Positions 2,175 to 19,544 of a stretch of DNA of 64,000 bases are shown piece after piece; positions within the stretch are counted from its first letter, which is position 1; each line of letters begins with the position of its first letter. The translations under genes were made by a program, and so were the position numbers. The stretch lies in the IMG/VR virus record IMGVR_UViG_3300042564_004235; one strand, 5' to 3'. The notes below the pieces were generated by a model. It saw nothing but the letters and a program-made list of their open reading frames with translations. It ran no database searches and was not told where the DNA came from. The DNA comes from a virus. Its lineage: Duplodnaviria > Heunggongvirae > Uroviricota > Caudoviricetes.

Positions 2175-2821
2175 AATATTTTTATTTTTTGTTAATATTG
2201 TTATTAACATCTTGTATTGAAATAATTGAAGATTTAAAATTAAACTCCGACGGATCAGGAACTTTTAAGTATTCAATTAACCTTAGTCAAAGTAAAACCA
2301 AAACCTCAGCAATACTTGCTCTTGATAGTTTATATGGTGAAAAAGTTCCTGAAATATCTGAAATAAAACAAAAAATTAGTTTTTTTAAAAAAACATTACA
2401 AGAACAAGAAGGTATCACAAATGTTACTATCACAGAAGATTATGAAAACTATATTGTAAGACTTCAGTGTGATTTTAAAAACGTGGAAATATTAGAAAGA
2501 GCATTAAAAAGTTCAGTATCAAAGTTATATCAAACAAATGAGTACGACTATGATTGGATATGTTACAAGGGTAAAACTTTAATTAGAAAGACACCAGTAC
2601 TTTATTTAGATGATATTAGAAAGTTTGGTGATAAGGATATTGATAAGTTAAAAACAGGTACCTATACTTCAATAACAAGATTTGCATCTAAAATAGACAC
2701 ATTTGAAAACATAAACTCAATTAGGTCTAAAAGTAATATGGCACTTATGATTAAAGTAAGTCCCGATATGTTATTGATAAATCAAAACTTGTTAGATAAT
2801 AAAATTAAATTACAAAAATGA
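2171..2821 (+). CDS. lipoprotein
   Basis: N-terminal signal peptide MKYFYFLLILLLTSC with a Bacteroidetes-type lipobox Cys. Start overlaps the previous stop in ATGA. Confidence 0.55.
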   Translation: MKYFYFLLILLLTSCIEIIEDLKLNSDGSGTFKYSINLSQSKTKTSAILALDSLYGEKVPEISEIKQKISFFKKTLQEQEGITNVTITEDYENYIVRLQCDFKNVEILERALKSSVSKLYQTNEYDYDWICYKGKTLIRKTPVLYLDDIRKFGDKDIDKLKTGTYTSITRFASKIDTFENINSIRSKSNMALMIKVSPDMLLINQNLLDNKIKLQK

Positions 2822-3666
2822 TAGAAACAAACAAGATTATAAATGGTGACTGCGTTGAGGTCATGAAAACATTACCTGAAGGTTGTATTGACCTAATCGT
2901 GACCTCACCACCCTATGGTGTTGGTATTGCTTATGATACGCATGATGACGACGTTGATTTTCAAGAATATGTTGTGTTTGCAAGAAATTGGTTAACTGAA
3001 GCTTATAAAGTATTAAAAGATGATGGAAGAATTGCATTAAACATCCCTTACGAAATTAACAGACAAAAGAAGGGTGGGAGAATATTCTTTGTTTCGGAGA
3101 TGTACCAAATAATGAAAGAAATCGGTTTTGGATTCTTTGGTATTGTTGATTTAGAAGAACAATCACCTCATCGTAGTAAAACCACAGCATGGGGATCGTG
3201 GATGAGTCCATCCAGTCCTTATATCTATAACCCAAAGGAATGTGTTATTTTGGCATATAAAAAAGTTCATATTAAAAAGGTTAAAGGTGAACCACAATGG
3301 AAAGGAGTCCCTACAGAGATAGAGCAAGAAGACGGAACTTTTAAGAAAAAAGTGGTGTACGAAGAACAAGATAAAAAAGAATTCATGGAACTTGTATTTG
3401 GTCAATGGAATTATTTTGCCGATACTAAGTCTCTAACCAAAGCAACCTTTTCAATGGACATACCAACAAAGGCAATCAAGATATTATCATATAAAGATGA
3501 TATAGTATTGGACCCATTTGCTGGAAGTGGTACTAGTTTAGTTGCCGCTGAAGTTCTCGGACGAAGGTGGTTAGGAATAGAACTATCACCAAACTACACC
3601 GAAATTGCGAAAACAAGAGTAGAATACTTTAAAAAGTTAGAAGATATTAAAGAAGACCAACAGTAA
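2818..3666 (+). CDS. DNA methyltransferase (beta-class N4-cytosine/N6-adenine)
   Basis: Motif IV DLIVTSPPYGVG precedes motif I VLDPFAGSGTSLVAAEVLGRRWLGIE, the beta-class order. SPPY points to amino-MTases (N4C or N6A). Confidence 0.85.
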   Translation: MIETNKIINGDCVEVMKTLPEGCIDLIVTSPPYGVGIAYDTHDDDVDFQEYVVFARNWLTEAYKVLKDDGRIALNIPYEINRQKKGGRIFFVSEMYQIMKEIGFGFFGIVDLEEQSPHRSKTTAWGSWMSPSSPYIYNPKECVILAYKKVHIKKVKGEPQWKGVPTEIEQEDGTFKKKVVYEEQDKKEFMELVFGQWNYFADTKSLTKATFSMDIPTKAIKILSYKDDIVLDPFAGSGTSLVAAEVLGRRWLGIELSPNYTEIAKTRVEYFKKLEDIKEDQQ

Positions 3667-3702
3667 TGTTGGTTTTTTTGTTTTGTTTCATATTTATTTA
3701 GT

Positions 3703-5442
3703 ATGAAAAGACTAATCAAAGAATCGGGAATTAGAGACATTAATTTACTGGCAAAAAGATACAAGAAAGCTAAAATATACTTTCACCAAGATTTAGATGG
3801 GGTTACTACGGCAATTGCAATGAAAAACTACCTTGAACAAAACGGTATTAATGTTGTTGATGCTGAAATTATTCAATACGGAGATAAAGAATTTGGAATA
3901 AAAAAACCTGAAGGTAGTGGTGAAGTTATGCCAGTTTTAGTTGATTTTGCACACGGAAAACCAATGTTTGTTATTCATACAGACCATCACGACAGTCAAG
4001 CGGGTGTAGAAAAGGACACCGCAACAAACTTCAAATCGTCAAGATCAAACGTTGAAACAATTTCACAAAGTATATCACCAAAAGAAATATTCACATCAGA
4101 AGACATACACCTAATATCAACAGTTGATTCTGCAAATTTTGCAGTAAATGACATAACACCGGAAATGGTAATGAATTATCTCTTCAAATATGATAAAAAT
4201 GAATCATTGAAAAGAAATAAAATGTTAATGGGGCTTGTAACAAACAAACTACTATTAGCATTTAAAAACAAACCAAAATTTTTAGAGCGACTTGTTTTAG
4301 AAGCAAAACCATCACTTTTGAGTATATTAAATTTGATTAAAAAAATCATAAAAGAAAAAGGTTATGCGAATATAGATGATTTAGTAAAAAATCAAGAAGA
4401 CTACGTTTCTAAAATGAAAAATTATAAAAATCTTGATGTACAAGGTAATGTGATTGTTCAATACGGAGGAGGATCAATGGTGAAGTCGGGATCTTATGAT
4501 AGGTATACACCATTTAGAAATAATCCTGATGCTGATTTTATTGTGATGGCTTGGCCTAAAGGGTTGGTTCAGTCTTCTTGCAATCCATACAAAAAAGAAA
4601 GAGCGTTAAAGGGTGTTGATTTAGGTGAGATAAAAGATGAGGTTTTAGATGTTTTTAAAAATGAATTAACCTCACAAAAAATAACATTTGGTACCCTAAA
4701 AAGATTATCTGAAATGGGAACGGAATATGGATCTGTTGGGTTTACATTTAAAGATATGATGGCAATATATGGAAACTCGCCTTCATTTAAAATACAAGGG
4801 GATTATGGAAGTTTAAGAGATATTTTATCTAATATATCATCTAGACTATATAGAAGTTTAAGTGAAAAACAAAGAATGTTATTAGATAAAGTTTCGGTTA
4901 ATGGGTTAGATGTTATAAAAGCTAATTCAGGAGGACATAAATGTATTACAAATATATCAGGTATTAATTTTTTATATAGTGGTAAAAAACAAGAAGGCGA
5001 TAGAAAATATGTTGATCTATTAAAGGATATTCAAAAAACATTTGTTGATATATTAAATAAAAAAATAGGGACACCAGCTAACCTAAAAGAATCTAAAGAA
5101 AGTTATAAAAAAGGTGTTGAATCACTTTTAAAAAATCATATAAAGGGTGGTAAAACTTTATCAGAAAAAGAATGGGACTATATAATGGAAAAATTAGATT
5201 GTGTTGTTGATAATAGAGGACAATGGGATCATCCTGAAAAATGTACAATGATTGAAAGTAATTCTATAACTATGAAAAACGTACCATACCCATTATTAGG
5301 TATTGATGATACTGGACATACAAAGTTAATGTTACCCGAAAAAACGTATAAATTTCCAGGTAATAACGTTTTTGAAATCCCACTTAAAGGAAAACACAAA
5401 ACTCTTGGAATAGAATTATTAAAAAATTTATCAAACTACTAG
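3703..5442 (+). CDS. DHH/DHHA1-family phosphoesterase
   Basis: DHH motif I FHQDLDG, motif III VIHTDHHDS, and a C-terminal DHHA1-like motif KANSGGHKCITN (GGGH-like). Confidence 0.7.
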   Translation: MKRLIKESGIRDINLLAKRYKKAKIYFHQDLDGVTTAIAMKNYLEQNGINVVDAEIIQYGDKEFGIKKPEGSGEVMPVLVDFAHGKPMFVIHTDHHDSQAGVEKDTATNFKSSRSNVETISQSISPKEIFTSEDIHLISTVDSANFAVNDITPEMVMNYLFKYDKNESLKRNKMLMGLVTNKLLLAFKNKPKFLERLVLEAKPSLLSILNLIKKIIKEKGYANIDDLVKNQEDYVSKMKNYKNLDVQGNVIVQYGGGSMVKSGSYDRYTPFRNNPDADFIVMAWPKGLVQSSCNPYKKERALKGVDLGEIKDEVLDVFKNELTSQKITFGTLKRLSEMGTEYGSVGFTFKDMMAIYGNSPSFKIQGDYGSLRDILSNISSRLYRSLSEKQRMLLDKVSVNGLDVIKANSGGHKCITNISGINFLYSGKKQEGDRKYVDLLKDIQKTFVDILNKKIGTPANLKESKESYKKGVESLLKNHIKGGKTLSEKEWDYIMEKLDCVVDNRGQWDHPEKCTMIESNSITMKNVPYPLLGIDDTGHTKLMLPEKTYKFPGNNVFEIPLKGKHKTLGIELLKNLSNY

Positions 5443-5535
5443 TTTTTTGTAACATATTTATATATTTATAAAATACCTCTAACAAAATTCATTATTTTTT
5501 TAAAAAAACAATTGACAGTTTAGAATAAATGTTTT

Positions 5536-5560
5536 AGATTTGTAAAACAATTAGGAAATG
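5536..5560 (+). promoter_or_regulatory. Bacteroidetes -7 promoter element (TAgaTTTG) plus conserved TTTGTAAAACAA leader
   Basis: ttgacag at about -33, then tagatttgtaaaacaa. Same module as at 5764, 18431 and 18612. Confidence 0.4.
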
Positions 5561-5591
5561 TCCTAATAATAAATTGAAATAATGTTAAGAC

Positions 5592-5732
5592 ATGAGCGAA
5601 GATCAAGTTGTAAATGAAATTTACGCCTACATCAATAACGAAGGTCAGAAAGTATATACACCTAATTATCAGTTTGCTGATATCATGGCTAAAAAATACG
5701 GAACTGACAAGGTGTACGTAGAAAAAAATTAA
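5592..5732 (+). CDS. small hypothetical protein (46 aa)
   Basis: Hand translation gives MSEDQVVNEIYAYINNEGQKVYTPNYQFADIMAKKYGTDKVYVEKN with stop at 5730-5732. Lies between two copies of the TTTGTAAAACAA promoter module. Confidence 0.3.
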   Translation: MSEDQVVNEIYAYINNEGQKVYTPNYQFADIMAKKYGTDKVYVEKN

Positions 5733-5763
5733 AAAAGTACTTGTCTAATTGAAAAAAAAGACT

Positions 5764-5790
5764 TAACTTTGTAAAACAAATCAGGAAAAG
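5764..5790 (+). promoter_or_regulatory. Bacteroidetes -7 promoter element (TAacTTTG) plus TTTGTAAAACAA leader; drives the GC-rich non-coding unit
   Basis: acttgtc ... taactttgtaaaacaaatcaggaaaagacc...gttctttgaaaaac. Same module as upstream of the tRNA genes. Confidence 0.4.
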
Positions 5791-5849
5791 ACCTGAAACG
5801 TTCTTTGAAAAACTAAAACCGACTGAAATTGTCGTCACAATTATAAAAA

Positions 5850-6696
5850 GCGAATTAACACCTCCCTTTCTTTAAGTGTGAAACTAAATTAAGTCATTGG
5901 GCCGTGTATGGTCCATTAAAATAAACCACGAAAGTGGGATAAAGTGAACCTAACGTGTAATGGGTTTGCGTCTTGGTGAGTCTTATGACTTGTTGAGGTC
6001 GAGTACACAAGCGGGATACCGTTTAACCTTTAGTACCGAGGGCAACGCTGTAGGGAAAGTGGTTCGACGAACTGGCAATGTGGGTTGTCAGTTTGAGGTG
6101 GGAACACCAAGAGGAATAACCCGTAGGAATTATGCAAAAAATAAGATTATCCGATTTTATTATTGCGTGTTCCATTATGATAGGGTACTTAAAACCGAAA
6201 GGTATGTTCGTGTACAGGTGGTGCTGTTACCAACCCTAATAATTCCTTACCAAAGGAATTGTTTTGAAGTAATCTTGATGTATGGAAATGGGGACATTTC
6301 ACAGAGTAGTTGAGTATCGATTCGTCCAAAAGATGGGTTGGCTCGGTTGGCAGACCACTACTTTGACAATCCACAACACACAACATTAATTTACATTAGG
6401 CTGTAAACTCTAAAAAGTAAAAATGTAAAAGTGTCTGTCAGGTTTGAATGAAAGGTGACTACATAGTAATGAGCCGTTCATTGCACACAAGGATCCCAAG
6501 TCTGAGTGTAATTATCCGAAAAACCTTTAGTCCCGCAAGGACGAACTGGGGAGGCATCCTCGGAAAGAGTCAAGTAAGGTGAGAGTAATTCAAACCTCAA
6601 GGAGTGATTCACCTAAATAATCGTCACTGAGGAATACTTCTCAAAAGGAAGTGGATAAGAGTAGAATAAATAATGACTCTAAAGGTTCTCAATAAC
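5850..6696 (+). ncRNA. candidate large structured non-coding RNA (GC-rich block, unknown family)
   Basis: About 50% GC against ~30% in the flanks. No ORF with proteome-like composition or start context. Promoter module upstream at 5764 and terminator at 6697-6720. Internal repeated segment cctttagtNccg...gacgaactgg at ~6027 and ~6527. Confidence 0.35.
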
Positions 6697-6720
6697 AGGT
6701 GTAATCTCAACCTTTTTTTA
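6697..6720 (+). terminator. rho-independent terminator
   Basis: aggtgtaatctcaacct hairpin followed by ttttttt. Confidence 0.5.
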
Positions 6721-6811
6721 AAACATGATTACTGGTAAAAAAAATTGATGGATGATAAAATATTATTGTCCATTTTTTTGTGCATTAAAAATTTTTGCAT
6801 ATCTTTGTATC

Positions 6812-9130: not shown

Positions 9131-9202
9131 GGTTCCGTGGTGAAAGGGATATCACAGTAGATTTCTAATCTTCTATTCCTGGTTCGAGTCCAGGCGGGAC
9201 TA
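9131..9202 (+). tRNA. tRNA-Arg (anticodon TCT), second copy
   Basis: Cloverleaf parts: acceptor GGTTCCG/CGGGACT, D-arm GTGA..TCAC, anticodon arm GTAGA-tttCTaa-TCTTC (one T:T mismatch), T-arm CCTGG-TTCGAGT-CCAGG. Overlaps the 3' end of the minus-strand HNH gene. Confidence 0.55.
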
Positions 9203-9719
9203 CTATTTTAGCGTGTACTTCTCTATGACAGTTTGCACAAACAAGAACACACTTGTCCAACTCAGATTTTACTATATCGTTAAATGAATACCTTTTTAAA
9301 CTGGATAAATTAAAATCTTTTTGTTTCGGATCTGTATGGTGGAATTCTAACGCACCTGTATACTTATCATACCCACATATTTGACAAGAACCACCTTTAT
9401 AATCAACCATTTGTTTTTTAAGTTTTTGCATTCTATTTAAAGACTGATCAGACGTACAAATTTTACAGTATGTTGATGAAAATTCAACCCCTCTACGTTT
9501 ATAGAACTGATCGGAAGGTAAGACCAACTTACATTTAGGACATTTTCTTTCAGGATTAACTCCTTTTTTCTCATTATATTTAAACTGGACATGCTTAGAC
9601 TCCAAACTATTTTTTTTAGCCCAATACCTAACAGTGGTTAATGATTTACCTGTTTCTTTACTAATTTGATTAAAAGATTTACCATCTTCAATAAATTTTT
9701 CTAACTCTTCTTTTTTCAT
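9165..9719 (-). CDS. HNH homing endonuclease with N-terminal HTH
   Basis: HTH-like SFNQISKETGKSLTTVRYWAKKN. HNH motif LEFHHTDPKQK...CVLVCANCHREVH. Last ~12 codons overlap tRNA-Arg on the opposite strand. Confidence 0.7.
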   Translation of the reverse strand: MKKEELEKFIEDGKSFNQISKETGKSLTTVRYWAKKNSLESKHVQFKYNEKKGVNPERKCPKCKLVLPSDQFYKRRGVEFSSTYCKICTSDQSLNRMQKLKKQMVDYKGGSCQICGYDKYTGALEFHHTDPKQKDFNLSSLKRYSFNDIVKSELDKCVLVCANCHREVHAKIVVPPGLEPGIED

Positions 9720-9919
9720 AGTTTAATGGATTATATTATATAAATATCCAACTAAACTAAAAAAGTTGATTATAATAAAAAAAATATTTATATTTTTAAT
9801 ATGGAAGAAATCTTTGAACAATTACACCAAGAATTTATTAATTCAGAAGAATTTATAAAATATCTTAAAGAACTTGACGAATATTCAGAAAAATATGTAT
9901 CTTTGTAAAAATAAACAAA

Positions 9920-10219
9920 ATGAACAAAGAACTTGTCTCCCTATTTTTCTCAATGACTCACGAATCTGACGAACTACTTGAAGTATTCAATAAGAAACAA
10001 CTATTAGATTTTTACATCAATGGATGTGAATTAAGACTTCGTATGGAAGGACGTTTGGAGAATTTTGAAAAGTTCAATAAAGAAACGGGAGTTGAGTTCA
10101 GCGCTTTGATCTCAAACAAATTTCACTTAGCAAAACAACTTCACGTATTAAAAATAGCCTTAGAAAAACTTGGAGTTAAAGGTTTAGAAGAAGATCAATA
10201 CGCAATGTTAAATAATTAA
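9920..10219 (+). CDS. hypothetical protein
   Basis: 99-aa ORF. A -7 box tatctttgtaaaaa sits ~12 nt upstream of the ATG. Confidence 0.5.
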   Translation: MNKELVSLFFSMTHESDELLEVFNKKQLLDFYINGCELRLRMEGRLENFEKFNKETGVEFSALISNKFHLAKQLHVLKIALEKLGVKGLEEDQYAMLNN

Positions 10220-10509
10220 TGAAATCATTTAAAGACATAGAATTTAAACCACATTCTTTTGGTGAGGGTGTACACGGACTATTATTTTTCCCAAATGGTT
10301 ATGGGGTGTCTGTTGTTAGATATAAAAACCCAATATCCAAAAGTTTTTCTTCCTACACATCAAATGATAGTGAATGGGAAGTTGCGATAATTTATGGTAA
10401 TAAAAAAGATTGGGAAATATCTTACAACACACATATTACTAATGACGTACTAGGACATTTAACTGAAGGTGAGGTTGATTGGGTTATGATTCAAGTTCAA
10501 GAACTATAA
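10219..10509 (+). CDS. hypothetical protein
   Basis: 96-aa ORF, start overlaps previous stop (TAATG). Confidence 0.5.
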   Translation: MKSFKDIEFKPHSFGEGVHGLLFFPNGYGVSVVRYKNPISKSFSSYTSNDSEWEVAIIYGNKKDWEISYNTHITNDVLGHLTEGEVDWVMIQVQEL

Positions 10510-10620
10510 GATATTTATAGATAACCTCTCAGGGATTTTGTTATTTTTACCCTATTGTCTAATACTCGGCCGTAAAAGCAATAAAGAAAAATTAACTCGG
10601 TAGTTGAGAATAACAAAGAA

Positions 10621-10680
10621 AATCACATGGTGTAATTGGTTAGCACAAAAATTGGTGTAGGTTTGAATCCTACTGTGATT
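10621..10680 (+). ncRNA. truncated tRNA-like element (no anticodon arm)
   Basis: Perfect 7-bp acceptor AATCACA/TGTGATT, canonical D-arm GTGT-AATTGGTTA-GCAC and T-arm GTAGG-TTTGAAT-CCTAC. Only ~10 nt lie where the anticodon arm and variable loop should be. Confidence 0.3.
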
Positions 10681-10709
10681 TCTTTTATCTTTTCCTATAT
10701 TTATTACAT

Positions 10710-11666
10710 ATGGAATTTAGACAGATATATTCACTTGCAAAAACTTTAGCCAATTTAGCCGAGTCCGAATTAAGTGATAAAGCAATAACAAGAACTAAAA
10801 TAAAACAATTGGCATCAAGTGACCATTTTGGTCAATTAATCATGTCAAAAGCACCAACAACTGCAGATAAACTTAAAATCATTATCACATCATGGTTTAT
10901 AATTAATAAGCCAAGACTTAAACCTGAAGACATCAATAGAATTATTAATAATCTTTATGTTTTAACAGTTGATATATATGATGAAATGGGTTATAAAAGT
11001 GAAACATGTGACGACTGTGCTGGTGATGGGTATTATGATTGTTCTAGTTGTGGTGGTAGTGGTGAACAAGATTGTAGATATTGTGATGGTGAAGGAACTG
11101 AAGAATGTTATGATTGTAGCGGTGAAGGATCTCAAGAGTGTAGGTATTGTGATGGTAAAGGAACTGAAATTGAAACAGAAGAAGATGATGAAGGGGACGA
11201 AGTTGAAGTTGAGGTAGAATGTGTTCATTGCGATGGTGAAGGTGCCGAAAGATGTGATTCTTGTGGTGGACAAGGAAATTTTAATTGTGGTACTTGTGAA
11301 GGTAGTGGTACTGAAAGTTGTGATTCTTGTGATGGAAATGGACACGAAGATTGTGATTATTGTGGTGGAAGTGGAGAAGTTGATAGTTATAATTATTATT
11401 ACAATATTGAAAGGGTTGATTATTTAATTCTTGGAAAAAGTTTAGAAAAATATATTGATAGACCAATAGAAAAAGATTTTTTTGATGATATTGAAAATGA
11501 AGATCCTTCTTTTGATTACTATATGATATTAAAATCAAATAACTATATGAGTGAAGAAGATGTTGATGATACAAGAGAACAATATGGTATGGAAGATAAT
11601 TTTGTAATTATTCAAGATATTAATAAACTCGAAGAACTTAGTATTAGAGTTCATGGACTTTCTTAA
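10710..11666 (+). CDS. Cys-rich repeat protein (CxxCxGxG repeats, DnaJ zinc-finger-like)
   Basis: At least 12 tandem CxxC(x)GxG motifs (CDDCAGDGYYDCSSCGGSGEQDCRYCDGEGTEECYDCSGEG...). Repetitive at DNA level. Acidic C-terminal half. Confidence 0.55.
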   Translation: MEFRQIYSLAKTLANLAESELSDKAITRTKIKQLASSDHFGQLIMSKAPTTADKLKIIITSWFIINKPRLKPEDINRIINNLYVLTVDIYDEMGYKSETCDDCAGDGYYDCSSCGGSGEQDCRYCDGEGTEECYDCSGEGSQECRYCDGKGTEIETEEDDEGDEVEVEVECVHCDGEGAERCDSCGGQGNFNCGTCEGSGTESCDSCDGNGHEDCDYCGGSGEVDSYNYYYNIERVDYLILGKSLEKYIDRPIEKDFFDDIENEDPSFDYYMILKSNNYMSEEDVDDTREQYGMEDNFVIIQDINKLEELSIRVHGLS

Positions 11667-11696
11667 CCATTAACATATTTATATAATAAAAAAATA

Positions 11697-11948
11697 ATGA
11701 AAAAAATAATTAGACTTACAGAATCAGATTTGGCAAGAATTGTTAGAAAGACATTAAAAGAAGATAAGGATAAAAATCCACTTTATAATGATATAAAAGA
11801 TATATTATGGGATTCATATGAATCTCAAGAATCTAAAGTATTTATATTAAGACAAATCGCTGATGAAATAGAAGGTGATATGGATTTAAGAAGTGACGTT
11901 TCAAAAAGATGGTCAAAAGAAAAGGAAGGACCGATAAATAGATTTTAA
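11697..11948 (+). CDS. leader-family small protein
   Basis: N-terminus [22 protein letters not shown]. Confidence 0.55.
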
Positions 11949-11956
11949 TAAAAAAT

Positions 11957-12649
11957 ATGAAAAAAATAATAAGACTTACAGAATCAGATTTAACAAGAAT
12001 TGTTAGACGAACAATAAATGAAATGGAGGATGAAGAAGACTATGGAACCATGAGAGGTAGATTTTTTGACGATGAGGATGAAGGCGACGAAGAGTGGGGT
12101 GAAACCGATATGGGTGAAGAAGAACTTCAAGATTTAATTGAAGAAGCAAGAGATTTTCTTGAAAATGAATGTGGATATGATTTACACGATATTAATTTAA
12201 TGGGCGAGGAAGATATTGTTGATGCTTTATATGATGAAGGTAATGATAATTTGGCTAACAATATTGAAAGTTTAATGGAAAAAGAAGGTTTTTATAATGC
12301 CGATGAGGACGAACCATACGATTCAATTGGAGGACACTCTGTTAATGATTTAAAGAAAGCATTTGCAAAAACAAAAGGAAGAGATGAAGAATTAGGTGAA
12401 GGGTTTGATGATTTTATTACCAAAAAAAGATTCAAAGACTACAACCCAAGAGAATTTAGAACAATTAAAAAAGATGATTACAAAAGAAATTTAAGACCAG
12501 GAATGAGAGACTTTGAAGGTACGGAATTAATGGGGTCGGAAGAAGAACCATTTGACGAATATAAAGATTTAAGTATGTATAATCCATATTATGATTCAGA
12601 TTTTGATGATGATGATTTTGAAGATTTTGATGACGAAGAATTTGTATAA
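11957..12649 (+). CDS. leader-family highly acidic protein
   Basis: N-terminus [22 protein letters not shown], then very D/E-rich with C-terminal [16 protein letters not shown]. Confidence 0.55.
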
Positions 12650-12885
12650 AAAAATAATAAAAACACTTGTCAATTAAAAAAAAATACCTATATTTGTAGG
12701 GTAATTAAAACTTTTAGAAAAAACTATATATTTATAACAAGATGAGAACAACTAATAAACATATGAACATTTGTAACCCGAGCATTCAGTGGTCGTTTAA
12801 CGTGTATCGTACGCTTAAGTCACATAATAGGGCATTTTCATTTATGAGTTGATAAAGATTAACAAAAAATATAAAAGAAATATAA

Positions 12886-12917
12886 GACCCGAACTCAAAA
12901 CAGTTCGGGTTTTTTTA
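12886..12917 (+). terminator. rho-independent terminator
   Basis: gacccgaactcaaaacagttcgggtc hairpin followed by ttttttt. Confidence 0.6.
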
Positions 12918-12930
12918 TACCCAAAAATTT

Positions 12931-13003
12931 GGTTCCTTAGTATAGTTTGGTAATATCCCGGCTTTGTAACCCGGAGTCATCAGTTCGAACCTGATAGGAA
13001 CCT
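12931..13003 (+). tRNA. tRNA-Thr (TGT)
   Basis: Acceptor GGTTCCT/AGGAACC is perfect. D-arm GTAT-agtttggta-ATAT. Anticodon arm CCGGC-tTTGTaa-CCCGG has one C:C mismatch. T-arm ATCAG-TTCGAAC-CTGAT. Confidence 0.55.
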
Positions 13004-13043
13004 CAAAAAAAGAAAAAGTTCTTTGACATATTGGCTTCATAAT

Positions 13044-13115
13044 TCTCCCCTCGTCTAATTGGCAGGACACCTGGTTTTGGACCAGAGAATCAAGGTTCGA
13101 GACCTTGGGGGAGAT
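13044..13115 (+). tRNA. tRNA-Gln (TTG)
   Basis: Acceptor TCTCCCC/GGGGAGA, D-arm GTCT..GGAC, anticodon loop ttTTGga, T-arm CAAGG-TTCGAGA-CCTTG. Preceded by gttctttgacata. Confidence 0.6.
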
Positions 13116-13211
13116 CAATAAGGAAGATGAATCACAGCGGCCTGTGACCCCGTCTTGAAAACGGGCGGTACCGAAAGGTATTGGGATCGACACCTACTTC
13201 TTCCTCTATAA

Positions 13212-13286
13212 CGGGATGTGGACTAATTGGTAAGTCGCCACTTTTGGGAAGTGGACATCATCCAGGTTCGAGTCCTGGTATCCCGA
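13212..13286 (+). tRNA. tRNA-Pro (TGG)
   Basis: Acceptor CGGGATG/TATCCCG, D-arm GACT-aattggta-AGTC, anticodon arm CCACT-ttTGGga-AGTGG, T-arm CCAGG-TTCGAGT-CCTGG. Confidence 0.7.
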
Positions 13287-13344
13287 CTAATAATAAACAA
13301 ATAAAAATAAGTGTTATGGAAAGTGACAAGTATGACAAACAGAA

Positions 13345-13419
13345 GATCTCGTAGCTCAGTTGGTTTAGAGCACTCCACTTTTAATGGAGGGGTCGTGAGT
13401 TCGAGCCTCACCGGGATCA
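13345..13419 (+). tRNA. tRNA-Lys (TTT)
   Basis: Acceptor GATCTCG/CGGGATC, D-arm GCTC..GAGC, anticodon arm CTCCA-ctTTTaa-TGGAG, T-arm GTGAG-TTCGAGC-CTCAC. Confidence 0.75.
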
Positions 13420-13424
13420 CAAAA

Positions 13425-13460
13425 AAATTTGGTAGATTAAAAAAAAGTATTATCTTTGTA
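13425..13460 (+). promoter_or_regulatory. Bacteroidetes-type promoter (TTTG at -33, tatcTTTG at -7)
   Basis: aaaaaaatttggtagattaaaaaaaagtattatctttgta immediately before ATG 13463. Near-identical module at 18585-18625 and 19835-19872. Confidence 0.5.
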
Positions 13461-13462
13461 AT

Positions 13463-13678
13463 ATGAAAACAGTAAAAGAAATTAAGAAAGGACTACCAAA
13501 AGGAATGGTTAAAGTTGGTGAAGAATGTGAAAGAGCTATTGTACGATTAATAAAACAAGGACAAACTCAAGAACAAGCAACAAACACCGTTCTAAGACTT
13601 TTGAATGATAGTAAACCTTATTTAGAACAAGGAATGTACTCTACCACAATTGAAAGTATTAAAATGATAACATCATAA
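13463..13678 (+). CDS. hypothetical small protein inside the tRNA island
   Basis: 71-aa ORF with promoter module directly upstream. Confidence 0.45.
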   Translation: MKTVKEIKKGLPKGMVKVGEECERAIVRLIKQGQTQEQATNTVLRLLNDSKPYLEQGMYSTTIESIKMITS

Positions 13679-13681
13679 AAC

Positions 13682-13755
13682 ACACTCTTAGCTCAGATGG
13701 TAGTAGCGGTAGTATTACAAACTACAGGTCACAGGTTCGACCCCTGTAGGGTGTA
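13682..13755 (+). tRNA. tRNA-Val (TAC)
   Basis: Acceptor ACACTCT/AGGGTGT (one G:U), anticodon arm GTAGT-atTACaa-ACTAC perfect, T-arm ACAGG-TTCGACC-CCTGT. Confidence 0.7.
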
Positions 13756-13765
13756 CAAAAAATAA

Positions 13766-13851
13766 GGGAGAGTTGAGCAATTGGTTGGCTCAGCAGACTG
13801 TAAATCTGTCGTCGTGAGACCTTGGGGGTTCGAGTCCCTCCTCTCCCACCA
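13766..13851 (+). tRNA. tRNA-Tyr (GTA), type II, encoded CCA
   Basis: Acceptor GGGAGAG/CTCTCCC, anticodon loop ctGTAaa, 15-nt variable arm, T-arm GGGGG-TTCGAGT-CCCTC, 3' ACCA encoded. Confidence 0.75.
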
Positions 13852-13855
13852 CAAT

Positions 13856-13928
13856 GGACAAGTAGCTCAATTGGTAGAGCAATCGGCTGTTAACCGATAG
13901 GTTACAGGATCGTACCCTGTCTTGTCCG
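13856..13928 (+). tRNA. tRNA-Asn (GTT)
   Basis: Acceptor GGACAAG/CTTGTCC perfect, D-arm GCTC-aattggta-GAGC, anticodon arm ATCGG-ctGTTaa-CCGAT, T-loop ATCGTAC. Confidence 0.75.
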
Positions 13929-14004
13929 CAACCACCGAGAAGTGACTGACGAGTCCGCTGACGAGCTGAGGGGGTGGTTAAGAAATACCCCTAAATACGT
14001 ACCA

Positions 14005-14077
14005 GCTCACGTAGCTCAATTGGTAGAGCGCCGATCTGATACGTCGGAGGTAATGGGATCGTAACCCGTCGTGAACA
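14005..14077 (+). tRNA. tRNA-Ile (GAT)
   Basis: Acceptor GCTCACG/CGTGAAC (one C:A mismatch), canonical D-arm, anticodon arm CCGAT-ctGATac-GTCGG. Confidence 0.6.
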
Positions 14078-14135
14078 CAAAAAGGGGAATAACTAGTGTG
14101 GGTGCCCCAACTACTGCAGGAGTACCACACTCTAC

Positions 14136-14221
14136 GGAAGATAAACCTTGATGGCGATAGGGTCCGCCTGCTAAGCGAGATGTACCCGTAAGGGTGTTTG
14201 GTTCGATTCCAATGTCTTCCG
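14136..14221 (+). tRNA. tRNA-Ser (GCT), type II
   Basis: Acceptor GGAAGAT/GTCTTCC, anticodon arm TCCGC-ctGCTaa-GCGAG, long variable arm tgtACCCgtaaGGGTg, T-loop TTCGATT. Confidence 0.55.
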
Positions 14222-14226
14222 CAAAT

Positions 14227-14296
14227 GCCGATAGGAGAGGTTTCCGGTCCGGGCTCATATCCTGGATGTCATTGGGTTCGATACCCTTTATCGGTA
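14227..14296 (+). tRNA. tRNA-like, probable CAT anticodon (Met/Ile2), degenerate
   Basis: Acceptor GCCGATA/TATCGGT and anticodon arm CCGGG-ctCATat-CCTGG fold. D-arm and T-stem are weak (T-stem 3 GC pairs plus two U:U). Only 70 nt. Confidence 0.35.
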
Positions 14297-14302
14297 CTAT
14301 AT

Positions 14303-14376
14303 GGTGTATGTAGCTCAGTTGGTAGAGTGTCGTTCTGTGAAAGCGGAGGTCGTGGGATCGTGACCCATCATACACA
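14303..14376 (+). tRNA. tRNA-His (GTG) with G-1
   Basis: Extra 5' G before the perfect acceptor GTGTATG/CATACAC. Canonical D-arm. Anticodon arm TCGTT-ctGTGaa-AGCGG (2 G:U). Confidence 0.75.
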
Positions 14377-14382
14377 CAACAT

Positions 14383-14454
14383 ACCTTCGTAGCTTAATGG
14401 AAAAGCCTTAGAATACGAATCTAATGATTGGGAGTTCGACCCTCTCCGAAGGTA
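14383..14454 (+). tRNA. tRNA-Arg (ACG)
   Basis: Acceptor ACCTTCG/CGAAGGT perfect, D-stem GCTT/AAGC, anticodon arm TTAGA-atACGaa-TCTAA perfect, T-arm GGGAG-TTCGACC-CTCTC. Confidence 0.75.
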
Positions 14455-14457
14455 CAA

Positions 14458-14632
14458 AAGATGATAAGAAGCGTAGAATGACAGACGTGGAGAGACGTGT
14501 CGCAAGGGTACAAACTAAGGAAAGGTATTCAATCTTAATTGTATTGATGTAATAACCCAACTCTCTAATGGTGTGTGAAGCTTTGATAGAAGTAGCGGGA
14601 TTCCTGATAAAGTCATTCATCATCTTTTATTC
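14458..14632 (+). ncRNA. candidate structured RNA element in tRNA island
   Basis: About 175 nt non-coding between two tRNAs. Closed by an inverted repeat aaagatgat ... atcatcttt and ending in a T-run. No ORF. Confidence 0.2.
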
Positions 14633-14704
14633 GCCCCTTTCGTATAATGGAAGTACAACACTCTTCTAAGGTGTCAGGTCGGAGTTCGAGTCTCTGAGGG
14701 GGTA
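14633..14704 (+). tRNA. tRNA-Arg (TCT)
   Basis: Acceptor GCCCCTT/AGGGGGT (2 G:U), D-arm GTAT-aatggaa-GTAC, anticodon arm ACACT-ctTCTaa-GGTGT, T-arm CGGAG-TTCGAGT-CTCTG. Confidence 0.7.
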
Positions 14705-14742
14705 CGGATCCGATGTCGGTCCCGAGCTAGGTCGGGCAATTT

Positions 14743-14814
14743 GCGTCTCTGGTGTAATAGGTAGCATGATGGATTCCAAACCCATCGGTCAGGGTTCGAG
14801 ACCTTGGGGACGCG
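14743..14814 (+). tRNA. tRNA-Trp (CCA)
   Basis: Acceptor GCGTCTC/GGGACGC, anticodon arm ATGGA-ttCCAaa-CCCAT (one A:C), T-arm CAGGG-TTCGAGA-CCTTG. Confidence 0.65.
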
Positions 14815-14879
14815 CTAAAAATTTAATTTTGTTAATTAAAAAAAAATACTTATATTTGTTTTATTAAATATTAAAAAAT

Positions 14880-15314
14880 ATGACTTTAAAAATTTCTAAC
14901 ATACAAAAACAAAAATTTTATGATTTAGGACATAAATTACCAAAATGTATAAATCCTGGATGCAATAACAATGTTGCTGTAAGAAATTGGTCCAATTGGT
15001 CTTTTAAATCTGAATGTCCACGTTGCCAAAAGGCAAGAAAGAAGGGTGTTGTTATTGAGGGTATCACTATACATAAAAAAAAATATTGTGAAAATATAGA
15101 CGGTCATTTAGGTTTTATGTGTCCTGTTCCTAGTATAGAAAATTGGAAAGGGTTTGAGGTTGGATGTTTAGATTTAGATCACATAGATGGAGACCACAAT
15201 AACAATTCAGTAGAAAATGTTAAAACTTATTGTAAATTGTGTCACAATAGAAAAAGTATTGAGAGCGGTGACTGCTCTAATAAAAAAGATTCGGCAAGAA
15301 CATTTAACACATGA
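14880..15314 (+). CDS. HNH endonuclease
   Basis: Zn-ribbon Cys pairs CINPGC...CPRC. HNH core GCLDLDHIDGDHNNNSVENVKTYCKLCHNRK. Stop overlaps the start of the MTase gene in ATGA. Confidence 0.7.
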   Translation: MTLKISNIQKQKFYDLGHKLPKCINPGCNNNVAVRNWSNWSFKSECPRCQKARKKGVVIEGITIHKKKYCENIDGHLGFMCPVPSIENWKGFEVGCLDLDHIDGDHNNNSVENVKTYCKLCHNRKSIESGDCSNKKDSARTFNT

Positions 15315-16096
15315 AACAAAAAATTATATGTAAAGATTGTCTTTTAGGTATTAAAGACATTAAAAATGAAACAATACACTTAACTTGGACATCACCACCA
15401 TACTTTAATGCAAAATCTTATAGTACATGGGAAACATATGATGATTATTTATCGTTTCTTAAAGAAGTGTTTTCTGAAGTGTTTAGAGTAACTAAAGAAG
15501 GTAGAATGTGTGTTGTTAATTTATCTCCGGTAATAATACCTAGAGAAAATAGGAATTGTGAGAGTAAAAGATTACCAATACCCTTTGATTTTTTTCCAAT
15601 AATGAAAGAAATTGGTTGGAAATATTTAGATGATATTGTGTGGGTAAAACCTGAAGGAGCGGCAATAAATAGAAATGGAGGGTTTTACCAACATAGAAAA
15701 CCAGTTGCATATAAACCAAATTTAGTGTCTGAAGTAATATTTGTTTTTCAAAAACCGGCAAGTTTTCTTATAGATAAAGTTGTTAGATCTTATAAAGGTG
15801 AAATTTTAGAAAAATCACTGGTTAATGAAACTTATGAGAGGAGTAATGTTTGGACGATAAACCCCGAAACTAAATCAAAACATTTAGCACCATACCCTGA
15901 AGAGTTATCAGATAAAATTATAAAATATTATTCTTTTGTTGGTGATATTGTTTTAGATCCATTTTTAGGTTCGGGAACAACATTATTATCTTGTGAAAAA
16001 TTAGATAGGTTAGGTATTGGGTTTGATATACATGAGGAATACTGTGAAATGTGTACTGATAGAATTAATGATTGGGTTAATAAACATAAAAAATAA
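15311..16096 (+). CDS. DNA methyltransferase (beta-class N4C/N6A), second copy
   Basis: Motif IV LTWTSPPYFNA and motif I VLDPFLGSGTTLLSCEKLDRLGIGFDIHEEY. Confidence 0.85.
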   Translation: MKQKIICKDCLLGIKDIKNETIHLTWTSPPYFNAKSYSTWETYDDYLSFLKEVFSEVFRVTKEGRMCVVNLSPVIIPRENRNCESKRLPIPFDFFPIMKEIGWKYLDDIVWVKPEGAAINRNGGFYQHRKPVAYKPNLVSEVIFVFQKPASFLIDKVVRSYKGEILEKSLVNETYERSNVWTINPETKSKHLAPYPEELSDKIIKYYSFVGDIVLDPFLGSGTTLLSCEKLDRLGIGFDIHEEYCEMCTDRINDWVNKHKK

Positions 16097-16172
16097 GGAA
16101 CTATGGTGTAAGTATGGTGTGTCACGCTGGTCTGAAAAACCAGAGGTTGCGGTTCGACTCCGCATGGTTCCA
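16097..16172 (+). tRNA. tRNA-Phe (GAA)
   Basis: Acceptor GGAACTA/TGGTTCC, anticodon arm CTGGT-ctGAAaa-ACCAG perfect, T-arm TGCGG-TTCGACT-CCGCA. D-region is unusually long, with a direct 7-nt duplication atggtgt. Confidence 0.6.
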
Positions 16173-16188
16173 CAAAAAAATAGAAATA

Positions 16189-16644
16189 ATGAACAGAGTA
16201 TTTAGAACGGTTAACGGTGAAACAATTCCTGATGTGGTAAAACATACCTTAGATGTTCTAAAAGAATGTCCATGGGTGGAAGTACACATCGGTACAGACT
16301 CACAAAACCACAGAAGAAGTACCGTGTATGTTACGGTAATAGCTTATAGGTATGGGAATCGTGGTGTCCACTACATACTACATAAACAGAAAGTGAAAAA
16401 AATTAAAGACAAATGGACACGTCTTTGGAATGAGGCCGATTATTCAATTGAGGTTGCGGAATGGTTAACCAAAAAAGTAAAGGTACAAGTTGAGATTGAC
16501 TTAGATTATAATAGTCAAGAAAAACATTTCAGTTCAAAATTGGTTCAACCTGTTGTTGGGTGGGCAACATCTTTGGGGTATAAAACAAACATTAAACCCG
16601 ACAACCAAATTGCAACAAAAGCGGCAGATCACCACTGCCGTTAA
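16189..16644 (+). CDS. hypothetical protein
   Basis: Track ORF 16114.. runs through tRNA-Phe; first plausible ATG is 16189 (MNRVFRTVNGE). Contains a HIGTDSQ motif of unknown significance. Confidence 0.45.
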   Translation: MNRVFRTVNGETIPDVVKHTLDVLKECPWVEVHIGTDSQNHRRSTVYVTVIAYRYGNRGVHYILHKQKVKKIKDKWTRLWNEADYSIEVAEWLTKKVKVQVEIDLDYNSQEKHFSSKLVQPVVGWATSLGYKTNIKPDNQIATKAADHHCR

Positions 16645-16649
16645 TATAT

Positions 16650-16721
16650 GCTCAGGTGTCTGATAGGTAAAGTCCCGGTCTGCAAAACCGTGGTATGTGG
16701 GTTCAAATCCCTCCCTGAGCT
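16650..16721 (+). tRNA. tRNA-Cys (GCA)
   Basis: Acceptor GCTCAGG/CCTGAGC perfect, anticodon arm CCGGT-ctGCAaa-ACCGT, T-arm GTGGG-TTCAAAT-CCCTC. D-arm irregular. Confidence 0.6.
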
Positions 16722-16730
16722 CAAAAACAG

Positions 16731-16811
16731 GCCTTCGTGGTGGAACGGTAGACACATCCGGCTTAGACCCGGATTCCGAAAGGAGTGAGAGTTCGAGTCT
16801 CTCCGGAGGTA
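16731..16811 (+). tRNA. tRNA-Leu (TAG), type II
   Basis: Acceptor GCCTTCG/CGGAGGT, anticodon arm TCCGG-ctTAGac-CCGGA perfect, 13-nt variable arm, T-arm GAGAG-TTCGAGT-CTCTC. Confidence 0.75.
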
Positions 16812-16851
16812 CAAATCTTTATTATCAACATATTTATATTAAAATGTTGAT

Positions 16852-17964
16852 ATGAAAAGAATTATTAGACTAACAGAATCTGATTTAACAAGAATAGTTA
16901 AACAAGTTATTCAAGAACAATCAGAACACGTTAAAAATTTATATAAATCGTGGGCCAATAAAAGGAGTGGGAATCCCGAAAAAGCATTATCAATTATTGA
17001 TGATGTTTTTAAATACCAAAAACAATTATCAAAAAAAGATTTTGCTCAATATTCTTCATACGAAGAATTGGTTGGTGATTTAAATAGAATTAAACAAGCC
17101 GCCAAATCAGAGGATGCCACAAAAATTTATGAAGATAAAGATTTGTTGGTATTAAAGGCAAACACACACGAAGCAAGTTGTAAATATGGTGCAGGATCTA
17201 AATGGTGTACAACCGCAAAAGATGATAGTTCATATTGGAGAAGACATAATGATACTGGAACTGAGTTCTTTTGGATATTCAAAAATAAACCACAAGATGA
17301 TCCGAATCATAAATTTTCTTATCACGTAAAAATAACTGGAGAGCCTGATTGGTGTAATGCGGTTAATAATTGTATGTCAACTTCAAGATTATCTGAAGAG
17401 TCTTATCCAAAGAAACATCCAAGATATACTGAAATTATTGAAAAATTACAAGAAATTCATGATGCTAGAGGATTGAAAGCACCAGAAAAAAGTGAAAGAC
17501 AACGACTTATTAATCAAATTGTAGATTGGGTTAGTGAAAATTTTGATGAAATTGAACCTATAATCCTTGATAATGATACTATTAATGATATTGTAAACAA
17601 TTGTACTTCATTTTTTTTAGATAGTGATGTATATGATTATTTACCATTTGATATAGATTTAGATGATGAAGACGCGACAGATGAATTTATCAGTAATTTA
17701 GAAAAAGAAATAAGAAACAATTTTGTACCAGATGTTGATGGGTCATCATTTGAAATTATTCATGGTTTATCGTGGTTAATTAATGATAATTTTGAAGACC
17801 CAATTGATTACTTAAACGCACACACACCGGAAGAGGTAATTAATGAATTAGGTGAAATGGATTCAAGAGGTCTTGAAGAAATTATTAATGAAGTACTTTA
17901 TGGTGGAATTACAGATCAATTAGTAGATTTCACTCTATATTACGGAGATAATTATCAACCATAA
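16852..17964 (+). CDS. leader-family protein (370 aa)
   Basis: N-terminus [22 protein letters not shown]. Acidic C-terminal half. Confidence 0.55.
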   Translation: MKRIIRLTESDLTRIVKQVIQEQSEHVKNLYKSWANKRSGNPEKALSIIDDVFKYQKQLSKKDFAQYSSYEELVGDLNRIKQAAKSEDATKIYEDKDLLVLKANTHEASCKYGAGSKWCTTAKDDSSYWRRHNDTGTEFFWIFKNKPQDDPNHKFSYHVKITGEPDWCNAVNNCMSTSRLSEESYPKKHPRYTEIIEKLQEIHDARGLKAPEKSERQRLINQIVDWVSENFDEIEPIILDNDTINDIVNNCTSFFLDSDVYDYLPFDIDLDDEDATDEFISNLEKEIRNNFVPDVDGSSFEIIHGLSWLINDNFEDPIDYLNAHTPEEVINELGEMDSRGLEEIINEVLYGGITDQLVDFTLYYGDNYQP

Positions 17965-18267
17965 TATTTGATTAATTAAAAAATAAGTTATATATTTGTA
18001 TTGTGATTGGTTGATGACTCCCACCGGTAAAATAGGTTGAGTCTCCCACACAAAAAACTGGGTTTGGCCACCCGGAGGTTAGCTAACCAAAAATTAACGA
18101 GGGTTAAGGTATGTGTCCCCATTATACACGATTTTGGGTTTTGATACAAGGAAGGTTGGACACTAATTCGTGATTAAATGTGTTCTTGTAGTTAATTTTA
18201 TTTTAAAAAAACTTGACACTTTTGAAAAGTAGCATATATTTATAAGACAAAACAAATAAAAACGCAA

Positions 18268-18342
18268 ATGAAAAATTTACATATCATACTATTAGGCGGA
18301 TTGGCGATAGCTGAGGATCGTTCCTTTAGGGAGGTGGTATGA
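18268..18342 (+). CDS. tiny hydrophobic peptide ORF (24 aa), speculative
   Basis: Hand translation MKNLHIILLGGLAIAEDRSFREVV. Followed by a strong terminator at 18367-18398. Confidence 0.2.
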   Translation: MKNLHIILLGGLAIAEDRSFREVV

Positions 18343-18366
18343 TAATTTAATACATAATAAATTTTG

Positions 18367-18398
18367 AAACCCATCTCCAAAAGAGGTGGGTTTTTTTG
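18367..18398 (+). terminator. rho-independent terminator
   Basis: aaacccatctccaaaagaggtgggttt hairpin followed by tttttt. Confidence 0.65.
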
Positions 18399-18419
18399 TT
18401 TAAGGGTATTGTGGAATTA

Positions 18420-18468
18420 AAAGTTTTTTGTAACTTTGTAAAACAAAAGAGGTTCTTTGACATAATGG
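18420..18468 (+). promoter_or_regulatory. promoter module (taacTTTGtaaaacaa ... ggttctttgacata) upstream of tRNA-Leu
   Basis: Same TTTGTAAAACAA plus GGTTCTTTGA(C/A)AT module as at 5764, 18612 and 13018. Confidence 0.45.
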
Positions 18469-18481
18469 TGATGAATAAAAT

Positions 18482-18565
18482 GGTTCGGTGGTGGAATTGG
18501 TATACACGACAGGTTTAAGCCCTGTTGCCCTTTGAGGCTTGTGGGTTCGAGTCCCACTCGGACTA
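18482..18565 (+). tRNA. tRNA-Leu (TAA), type II
   Basis: Acceptor GGTTCGG/TCGGACT (3 G:U), D-stem GTG/CAC, anticodon arm ACAGG-ttTAAgc-CCTGT perfect, 15-nt variable arm, T-arm GTGGG-TTCGAGT-CCCAC. Confidence 0.6.
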
Positions 18566-18584
18566 CAGAAAAAAAGTTTAAAAA

Positions 18585-18625
18585 AGATTTGGCAGATTAA
18601 AAAAGATTATATATCTTTGTAAAAC
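18585..18625 (+). promoter_or_regulatory. Bacteroidetes-type promoter (aaaaagtttaaaaaagatttggcagatt ... tatcTTTGtaaaacaa)
   Basis: Near-identical to the modules at 13425 and 19835. Confidence 0.5.
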
Positions 18626-18759
18626 AAATAAGGAAAAAAGGTTCTTTGAAATATTAAAAATATGTGGTTGTAAGAAACGGGAAACTCGTAAAGTGCATTA
18701 ACCTGTTGACTCAAGATGGTGAAACGAGAGTTTGAGTCAACTACTAAACTACAAATTAT

Positions 18760-18833: not shown

Positions 18834-18842
18834 ACAAACATA

Positions 18843-18925: not shown

Positions 18926-18928
18926 CAA

Positions 18929-19375: not shown

Positions 19376-19544
19376 CAAATAAACCTTACAGAAGTCCGAA
19401 TAGCGCGGATGAAAGGAACCTTGGCTCTCATAGGATCGCAACCTTTACGGAGAGTTTGAATGTCCCAAGGTACTCTGTAATGGACCCTGCTCTGATGTGC
19501 ACGTCAACAGGTGATGGGGAACAAACCATCGATCAAATCCAAAC

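Follow-up and report, generated by a model that had tools for sequence, protein, structure and literature searches.

An env-38-type GOLLD RNA gene with a putative boxA-type leader and a linked small gene in an uncultured phage

A full-length GOLLD copy in a tRNA-rich phage

The DNA analyzed here is a stretch of 64,000 nucleotides (nt), called the window below, from the IMG/VR virus record IMGVR_UViG_3300042564_004235 (Caudoviricetes). We found that the region at positions 5764-6720 is a full-length copy of GOLLD, a known family of giant phage RNAs, and does not represent a new class. In an Rfam scan of the whole window with curated thresholds, the GOLLD model (RF02032) matched positions 6302-6713 of the plus strand with 318.3 bits (E 2.5e-90), against a gathering score of 150 bits for this family, and the match is untruncated, covering model positions 1-416 of 416. 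The original prediction, made from the letters of the DNA, had proposed at this place a non-coding transcription unit with a large structured RNA of the GOLLD/ROOL type of tRNA-rich phages. This proposal is borne out by the covariance-model match, by covarying helices and by the lack of conservation of the open reading frames (ORFs) in the region, and the RNA is GOLLD itself. The further suggestion that it may be a distinct large non-coding RNA is contradicted by the full-length match.

The Rfam model covers the conserved 3' region of the family only, and 5898-6301 thus lies outside the modelled part. The whole structured RNA extends over about 816 nt (5898-6713), follows a leader of about 120 nt, and has a minimum free energy z-score of -4.1. 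The env-38 GOLLD could be aligned over 5898-6713 with 72% identity, spanning both domains; for this comparison the env-38 sequence was taken from the text of the supplementary PDF of PMC12286853, in which it has 816 nt, compared with 833 nt as published. Because env-38 aligns across both domains and also keeps the base pairs of the 5' domain (see below), the window contains a complete two-domain GOLLD of env-38 architecture.

An IMG/VR scan with the conserved 3'-domain motif gave 119 loci, 101 of them full-length. The 5' domain of the window is common to about 73 of the 101, with identities of 60-100%, and the leader and the linker are far less conserved among these relatives than the two domains. 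All GOLLD relatives came from IMG/VR viral contigs, and the window itself encodes phage-type proteins, such as an RNA ligase and a DNA methyltransferase, which places the RNA in a phage setting. A blastn search of 5740-6730 against 50,697 deposited phage genomes found no close cultured relative; there were weak partial matches only, to two huge uncultured phages and, over stretches of 67-76 nt, to Acinetobacter phages.

Taken together, the region very probably holds a full-length GOLLD of the env-38 type that forms its own transcription unit, with a putative boxA-type leader, and that would by homology assemble into a cage. The features of the locus and of its surroundings are listed in Table 1.

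Table 1. Positions of the GOLLD unit, the linked small gene and other genes in the window
Feature	Position	Strand	Remark
N6/N4 DNA methyltransferase	2818-3666	+	
579-aa (amino acid) protein with weak DHH-domain match	3703-5442	+	just 5' of the GOLLD cassette
Promoter module of the 46-aa ORF, TAGATTTGTAAAACAA	5535-5550	+	followed by a hairpin at 5551-5566
46-aa ORF	5592..5732	+	directly 5' of the GOLLD promoter; candidate GOLLD-linked gene
GOLLD promoter	5740..5771	+	cTTG element at 5740-5743, 20-nt spacer, -7 box TAACTTTG at 5764-5771
Leader hairpin, TCAGGaaaagaCCTGA	5781..5796	+	stem-loop call; boxB position of an rrn-type leader
boxA-like element, GTTCTTTGAAA	5800..5810	+	putative NusB/NusE loading site
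Variable leader part	5811..5897	+	poorly conserved beyond close relatives
GOLLD 5' domain	5898..6301	+	24 helices including the first hairpin; same architecture as the env-38 5' 'cap' domain
First hairpin of the conserved GOLLD 3' region	6302..6364	+	Rfam model positions 1-62
A-rich variable linker	6365..6437	+	GC (guanine plus cytosine) 30%; unpaired in the Rfam consensus
GOLLD 3' domain core	6438..6713	+	RF02032 match
Terminal hairpin and seven T's	6697..6719	+	stem AGGU/ACCU, conserved loop GUAAUCUCA; Rfam model positions 401-416
PAS and HATPase_c histidine-kinase-like protein	22771-24369	+	
RNA ligase	53902-55035	+	PF09414, phrog_968

Structure and conservation of the two domains

The structure of the 5' domain is conserved. 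An alignment of 47 viral-metagenome relatives, with a mutual identity of at most 94%, was folded with RNAalifold and gave 107 pairs in 23 helices in addition to a pseudoknotted first hairpin, and 81-84 of the pairs (81 by RNAalifold) show compensatory change. On the predicted structure, 97.4% of the paired cells of the alignment can pair, compared with 35-42% when the partners were slid by one to three columns, and the covariation score is 0.506 compared with at most 0.112 for slid partners; none of 500 shuffles reached the observed values. The first hairpin (in the region of 5898-5915) is also supported, and its loop takes part in one predicted helix with a downstream segment, therefore forming a pseudoknot. 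As for env-38, 95 of the 107 family-derived pairs are kept, and 37 of these differ from the window on both sides. The family alignment thus gives independent covariation support for a 5' domain that is not modelled by Rfam.

In the 3' domain core, a long-range helix (6440-6449 with 6588-6597) is a 10-nt fully complementary inverted repeat, and a compensatory A-to-G and T-to-C change was seen in one relative (L023). The hairpin at 6546-6563 has a GGCA loop, and the GC dinucleotide of the loop is retained in nearly all of the loop variants of the relatives. Between the first 3'-region hairpin and the core, positions 6381-6428 of the linker are swapped for unrelated sequence in four relatives (L067, L088, L094 and L115), in which both domains are 98-100% identical to those of the window. 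A similar observation was made in the leader: in L067, L023 and L115, the short hairpin within 5776-5799 is exchanged for a longer one. These replacements of the linker and of the leader hairpin look like localised swaps within an otherwise frozen gene. Kretsch 2025 (PMC12286853) reported that the linker of env-38 is disordered and lies inside the cage. A comparison of the linker (6365-6437) with the rest of the window for complementarity or repeats, which might indicate a possible cargo or target, gave only 11-mers expected by chance.

Direct repeats within the RNA had been taken in the original prediction as a sign of long-range pairing. The repeated segments, AACCTTTAGTNCCG (at 6025 and 6522) and GACGAACTGG (at 6066 and 6540), are real; however, they are direct and not inverted, and the copies therefore cannot pair with each other. 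They sit in different, separately covarying helices of the 5' and 3' domains. Both long-range pairing and a duplicated module, as explanations of the repeats, were rejected, as no covariation between the domains was seen (1 to 10 mismatches across relatives). The elevated GC content noted in the original prediction was also confirmed in part: it averages 40.8% across 5898-6713 and is highest, at 47%, in 5900-6099, against 26-28% in the flanks and 31.6% as the mean of the window, but not the claimed value of about 50%.

Three other readings of the region should be considered. On the ground that the known RNA cores had not been recognized by eye and that the 5' half (5898-6301) lacks an Rfam model, the region could be thought to hold a previously undescribed class of large structured RNA. 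This is very improbable, since the 3' half is a full-length GOLLD match and the 5' half shares the helices of the env-38 5' domain; we regard it as refuted by the RF02032 match together with the env-38 alignment and the conservation of pairs. That the region is instead protein-coding, with one of its two ORFs (5960..6313 on the plus strand, 117 aa; 6189..6386 on the minus strand, 65 aa) being a real gene of odd composition, is hardly credible. Both ORFs are present, and the metagenome annotations of two relatives (L240 and L243) list the 117-aa ORF (3396-3749 in those records) as a gene. However, scans against Pfam and PHROG gave no match for either ORF. In distinct homologs that are 60% or more identical across the spans of the ORFs, the start and frame of the plus-strand ORF are intact in 6 of 65, most of which are near-identical to the window, and those of the minus-strand ORF in 1 of 62. 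Furthermore, the substitutions track base-pairing rather than codons. The region has no coding capacity and these ORFs are not genes, as the original prediction had already judged; the 117-aa 'protein' that public metagenome annotations place within the GOLLD 5' domain is thus spurious.

The remaining reading, that the RNA is a self-splicing intron or an RNase P, tmRNA, ROOL or OLE RNA, has a negligible probability. These are also large structured RNAs, introns or tRNA-like elements occur in tRNA-rich regions of phages, and a homing-endonuclease gene is located elsewhere in the window (20456-20881). Nevertheless, in the Rfam scan all of these families, including the group I and group II introns, stayed below threshold in 5764-6720, and GOLLD explains the region fully.

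The transcription unit and its putative boxA-type leader

The unit runs from a promoter through a leader, the 5' domain, the linker and the 3' domain to a terminal hairpin. Promoters of Bacteroidota have a -7 consensus of TAnnTTTG. The -7 box of the GOLLD promoter, TAACTTTG, consists of TAAC and the start of a 12-mer, TTTGTAAAACAA, at 5768, and fits this consensus. Exactly four copies of the 12-mer are present in the window (at 5539, 5768, 18435 and 18616, all on the plus strand), and tRNA genes lie downstream of those at 18435 and 18616; the claim of the original prediction that GOLLD and the tRNA genes share a promoter module was thus correct. Many other intergenic TAnnTTTG sites are found ahead of ORFs across the window. 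The relatives keep the same promoter arrangement 5' of GOLLD, and the transcription start is predicted at about 5776-5780.

A hairpin occupies the place of the leader hairpin in all of the 41 distinct related GOLLD leaders, in 16 sequence variants with compensating arms, two of which use G-U pairs. It is followed by the element GTTCTTTGAAA, about 22-34 nt past the predicted transcription start. Farther downstream the leader varies: identity over 5780-5880 is just 0.2-0.6 in relatives whose 5' domain identity is 0.6-0.8. The motif GTTCTTTGAMA, to which this element belongs, has exactly five copies in the window compared with 0.21 expected, all on the plus strand and each adjoining untranslated RNA genes. 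These copies, GTTCTTTGA(A/C)A, start at 5800, 13018, 18452, 18641 and 20097: one is that of the GOLLD leader, one separates tRNA-Thr from tRNA-Gln, one lies behind each of the two tRNA promoters, and one follows tRNA-Asp. Among the relatives, the 9-mer G[TC]TCTTTGA occurs in the 330-nt leader of 68 of 103 GOLLD loci; the remaining sequence of these loci predicts 0.012 per 330 nt.

The same 9-mer was looked for in the rRNA operons of the putative host phylum, for which 120 Bacteroidota operon starts were fetched and 102 were usable. It was present within 600 nt upstream of 16S in 49 of the 102 operons, mostly at 75-250 nt and often after a hairpin, compared with a background of 13 matches in 403 kilobases (kb) farther upstream of the operons. 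Some host rRNA leaders contain GTTCTTTGAAAATATTGAAAT, the first 18 bases of which (GTTCTTTGAAAATATTGA) are identical to the window copy at 20097. Based on the identity, the position and the enrichment of the motif, these results suggest that the GTTCTTTGA element is of boxA type, and that host Nus factors mediate rrn-type antitermination of the GOLLD gene and the tRNA arrays. It is known that the BoxA of rRNA leaders recruits NusB/NusE and the Nus complex, and that, also in Bacteroidetes, BoxA/Nus antitermination shields long untranslated RNAs (rRNA and CRISPR arrays) from Rho (PMC7665894). In our literature searches, we found no published work joining GOLLD to antitermination, and none of relevance that links boxA or NusB to GTTCTTTGA or UUCUUUGA. 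An example of a proteobacterial boxA is GCTCTTTAACAA.

Alternatively, GTTCTTTGA and the hairpin may have a role other than antitermination. For example, an RNase might process the transcript there, the stem-loop might stabilise the 5' end, or a phage regulator might bind at the promoter, where the hairpin forms a palindrome in the DNA at about +3 to +18. In addition, a promoter with a hairpin but without GTTCTTTGA is found ahead of the 46-aa gene (5535-5566), and GTTCTTTGA but no clear hairpin accompanies the tRNA promoters at 18431 and 18612; since each occurs without the other, the two elements are separable. Against this, the motif is enriched at the boxA position in the rRNA leaders of Bacteroidota (the 49 of 102 operons above), its copies in the window stand only beside untranslated RNA genes, including inside tRNA arrays, and the G-U pairs in two of the hairpin variants favor an element acting at the RNA level over a DNA palindrome. 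We therefore consider a role other than antitermination rather unlikely.

At its 3' end, the RNA closes with a hairpin (6697-6713) that has a stem of 3-4 base pairs (A/GGU...ACC/U) and a 9-nt loop, and seven T's follow at 6713-6719. Of 68 distinct relatives, 45 have a T-run of at least five directly 3' of this hairpin, whose stem shows covariation; a tRNA lies directly downstream in some of the relatives without the T-run. The terminal GOLLD hairpin with the T-run is thus a probable intrinsic terminator. The original prediction called it a clean one; the hairpin and the T's do exist, but the stem is weak and a terminator scan made no call.

In the working model that we propose, the Bacteroidota-type promoter would start GOLLD as its own transcription unit, with a leader composed of the hairpin and then GTTCTTTGAAA. 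The boxA would recruit a host antitermination complex based on NusB/NusE, through which the untranslated structured transcript of roughly 0.9 kb might escape Rho and be completed, and transcription would stop at the last GOLLD hairpin and the seven U's. As in its homolog env-38, the RNA would then form two domains, the 'cap' on the 5' side and the 'ring' on the 3' side, with the hypervariable linker between them, and would assemble, without protein, into a hollow multimeric cage that has the linker inside; env-38 has 14 subunits. Judging from its relatives, self-assembly into a cage is the most likely behavior of this RNA, and indirect support comes from the helices that it has in common with env-38 and from the retained GC dinucleotide of the GGCA loop (6546-6563). 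GOLLDs form 10-, 12- or 14-mers, as set by peripheral helices (PMC12990946). The family is phage-associated, is often found near tRNAs, and shows increased expression during lysis (PMC12286853). The cages are empty and consist of RNA only, and might enclose tRNAs, ribosomes or other cargo (PMC12286853, PMC12990946); the leading published idea is that they encapsulate or sequester cargo related to translation, for example phage tRNAs.

Several observations weigh against parts of this model. The env-38 copy that we compared is 17 nt short, and the number of subunits cannot be derived from the sequence. The start of transcription, the RNA ends and a possible processing of the 120-nt leader are predicted features. 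The consensus terminator scan passed over the weak terminal hairpin, and the T-run is absent in one third of the relatives. Furthermore, the boxA motif is absent from one third of the GOLLD loci, and about half of the sampled rrn leaders of Bacteroidota have no exact match to it. As for the hairpin as a neighbor of boxB type, it is found in all 41 GOLLD leaders, and a clear one is lacking at the tRNA promoter copies; the promoter of the 46-aa ORF also has a downstream hairpin and yet no boxA. Thus, the leader hairpin may belong to the promoter module and not to an antitermination signal.

The linked 46-aa gene

Homologs of the 46-aa ORF (41-100% identity) were found by profile searches on the same strand, just 5' of the GOLLD promoter, in 50 of the 95 GOLLD loci with sufficient upstream sequence. 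The linkage was also seen in the reverse direction, starting from 70 IMG/VR loci (L246-L315) that were found via the 46-aa protein alone. The GOLLD 5' domain lies at most 500 nt downstream, on the same strand, in all of the 54 such loci with at least 600 nt of downstream sequence, and the 3' domain is present in all 51 with at least 1150 nt. The outer neighbors vary more, with five unrelated clusters upstream and nine downstream. The linkage between the 46-aa gene and GOLLD within this phage lineage is therefore solid.

The 46-aa protein belongs to no Pfam or PHROG family. Its relatives in a database of 5.8 billion sequences are all labelled 'hypothetical', save for one that JGI labels as histidyl-tRNA synthetase. 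The predicted fold is strand-strand-helix-strand (predicted local distance difference test, pLDDT, 78.6), and a search for structural neighbors with this fold gave none that was significant. The protein is mildly acidic, and thus there is no hint of a classical RNA binder. The exact protein is encoded on 149 public contigs from JGI and ENA metagenomes, the longest of which is 157 kb.

One tentative explanation, which we think has somewhat less than an even chance, is that the 46-aa protein as a partner of the cage, the leader with a hairpin and boxA of the type found in host rRNA, and GOLLD form a conserved cassette, with which the phage borrows the antitermination and RNA-chaperone machinery of its host. 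In such a cassette, NusA/B/E/G and SuhB would serve to transcribe the cage RNA and the tRNA arrays and to fold them during transcription, and the small protein might, for example, help to assemble the cage, load its cargo or regulate it.

Taken only as a GOLLD copy, the locus adds one more ordinary member with a good score to a known RNA family, and little follows from it. The boxA-type leader and the linked 46-aa gene are the sole points that may be new. Together with more than 100 viral relatives, the locus offers handles on the function of GOLLD, as a unit defined from promoter to terminator. A boxA of the rRNA-leader type would explain how an untranslated RNA of 0.9 kb escapes Rho, and might aid its chaperoned folding; the tightly linked 46-aa gene is a candidate for a protein partner.

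Comparison with known systems

The closest system is the env-38 GOLLD (RF02032), for which cryo-electron microscopy showed a 14-mer forming a D7 cage (PDB 9MEE in PMC12990946; PMC12286853). The two RNAs are similar in length (about 816 nt in the window, 833 nt in env-38), in the A-rich variable linker after the first 3'-region hairpin, in a conserved GAAA hairpin (ACC-GAAA-GGU, 6194-6203) and the conserved terminal loop GUAAUCUCA, and in being a phage gene beside a tRNA island. On the other hand, the window copy has one shorter peripheral hairpin (about 17 nt fewer at 6198/6199) and one longer one (5982-5999), and the linker sequences are unrelated. Furthermore, env-38 is from a marine scaffold, whereas the window is from a phage of freshwater Bacteroidota type.

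The GOLLDs of Streptococcus agalactiae (12-mer, PDB 9L0R), of Lactobacillales and of Mycobacterium have the same conserved 3' domain and likewise occur with prophages and tRNA arrays; throughout the family, the 3' region is conserved and the 5' region varies (PMC12286853, PMC12990946). Those GOLLDs lack the peripheral helices P9, P11a-c and P21b and form 12-mers (PMC12990946). The Mycobacterium GOLLDs can hold a tRNA in the linker (PMC12990946), whereas the window copy has none inside. ROOL RNA, also large, ornate, phage-associated and located near tRNAs, builds cages of RNA alone that enclose its linker; however, its sequence and secondary structure are unrelated, and it has no match in the window.

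Like the rrn-type BoxA described by Stringer et al. 2020 (PMC7665894), the element in the GOLLD leader is short and U-rich, comes a few nucleotides after the promoter of a long untranslated RNA, and has a hairpin before it. The identical motif is found in the 16S leaders of Bacteroidota, and it recurs in the tRNA arrays, much like boxA in rRNA spacers. In contrast to the rrn BoxA, the motif of the window is encoded by the phage, stands before GOLLD and tRNA genes, and binds Nus factors only putatively. It also differs from the nut sites of lambda, which depend on the phage N protein and have boxA ahead of boxB.

The tRNA region and other elements of the window

ARAGORN found 23 tRNA genes at 9131-21682, on the same strand as GOLLD and 2.4-15 kb downstream of it, and the Rfam scan found 22 tRNAs at 9131-21681, all on the plus strand. 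A tblastn search with a 470-aa protein of the window gave nothing useful for the assignment of the host. The source is an uncultured freshwater phage that very probably infects Bacteroidota, a host to which the promoter type and the rRNA-leader motif point.

Within the tRNA region, about 3 kb (18640-21600, plus strand) are nearly all non-coding, with a GC content of 41-55%. A freshwater-1 RNA (RF02979, 85.2 bits, full model) lies there at 19476-19537 on the plus strand, between tRNA-Gly and a tRNA-like element that was not called. T-arm-like GGTTCGAnTCC motifs outside the called genes were seen near 19066, 19619, 21289, 21497 and 21547, and there are two pairs of direct repeats of about 70-100 nt (18931-19010 and 20257-20360; 20940-21010 and 21112-21190). 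A permissive Rfam scan accounted for none of these motifs or repeats, which may be further structured RNAs or split or intron-containing tRNA-like genes.

The same GC-rich non-coding stretch contains an ORF of 141 aa (20456-20881, plus strand) with a GC content of 25%, which matches PF11645 (PD-(D/E)XK, I-Ssp6803I family) with an E value of 2.3e-24. This looks like an insertion of a homing endonuclease or an intron, and the group I intron model had no match at this place. Finally, ARAGORN reported a tRNA at 21607-21682 (plus strand; 42 bits with the Rfam tRNA model) with an 8-nt anticodon loop, the anticodon 'ttaa' and no assigned amino acid. Possible readings are a suppressor tRNA, a tRNA that decodes quadruplets, or a degenerate gene.

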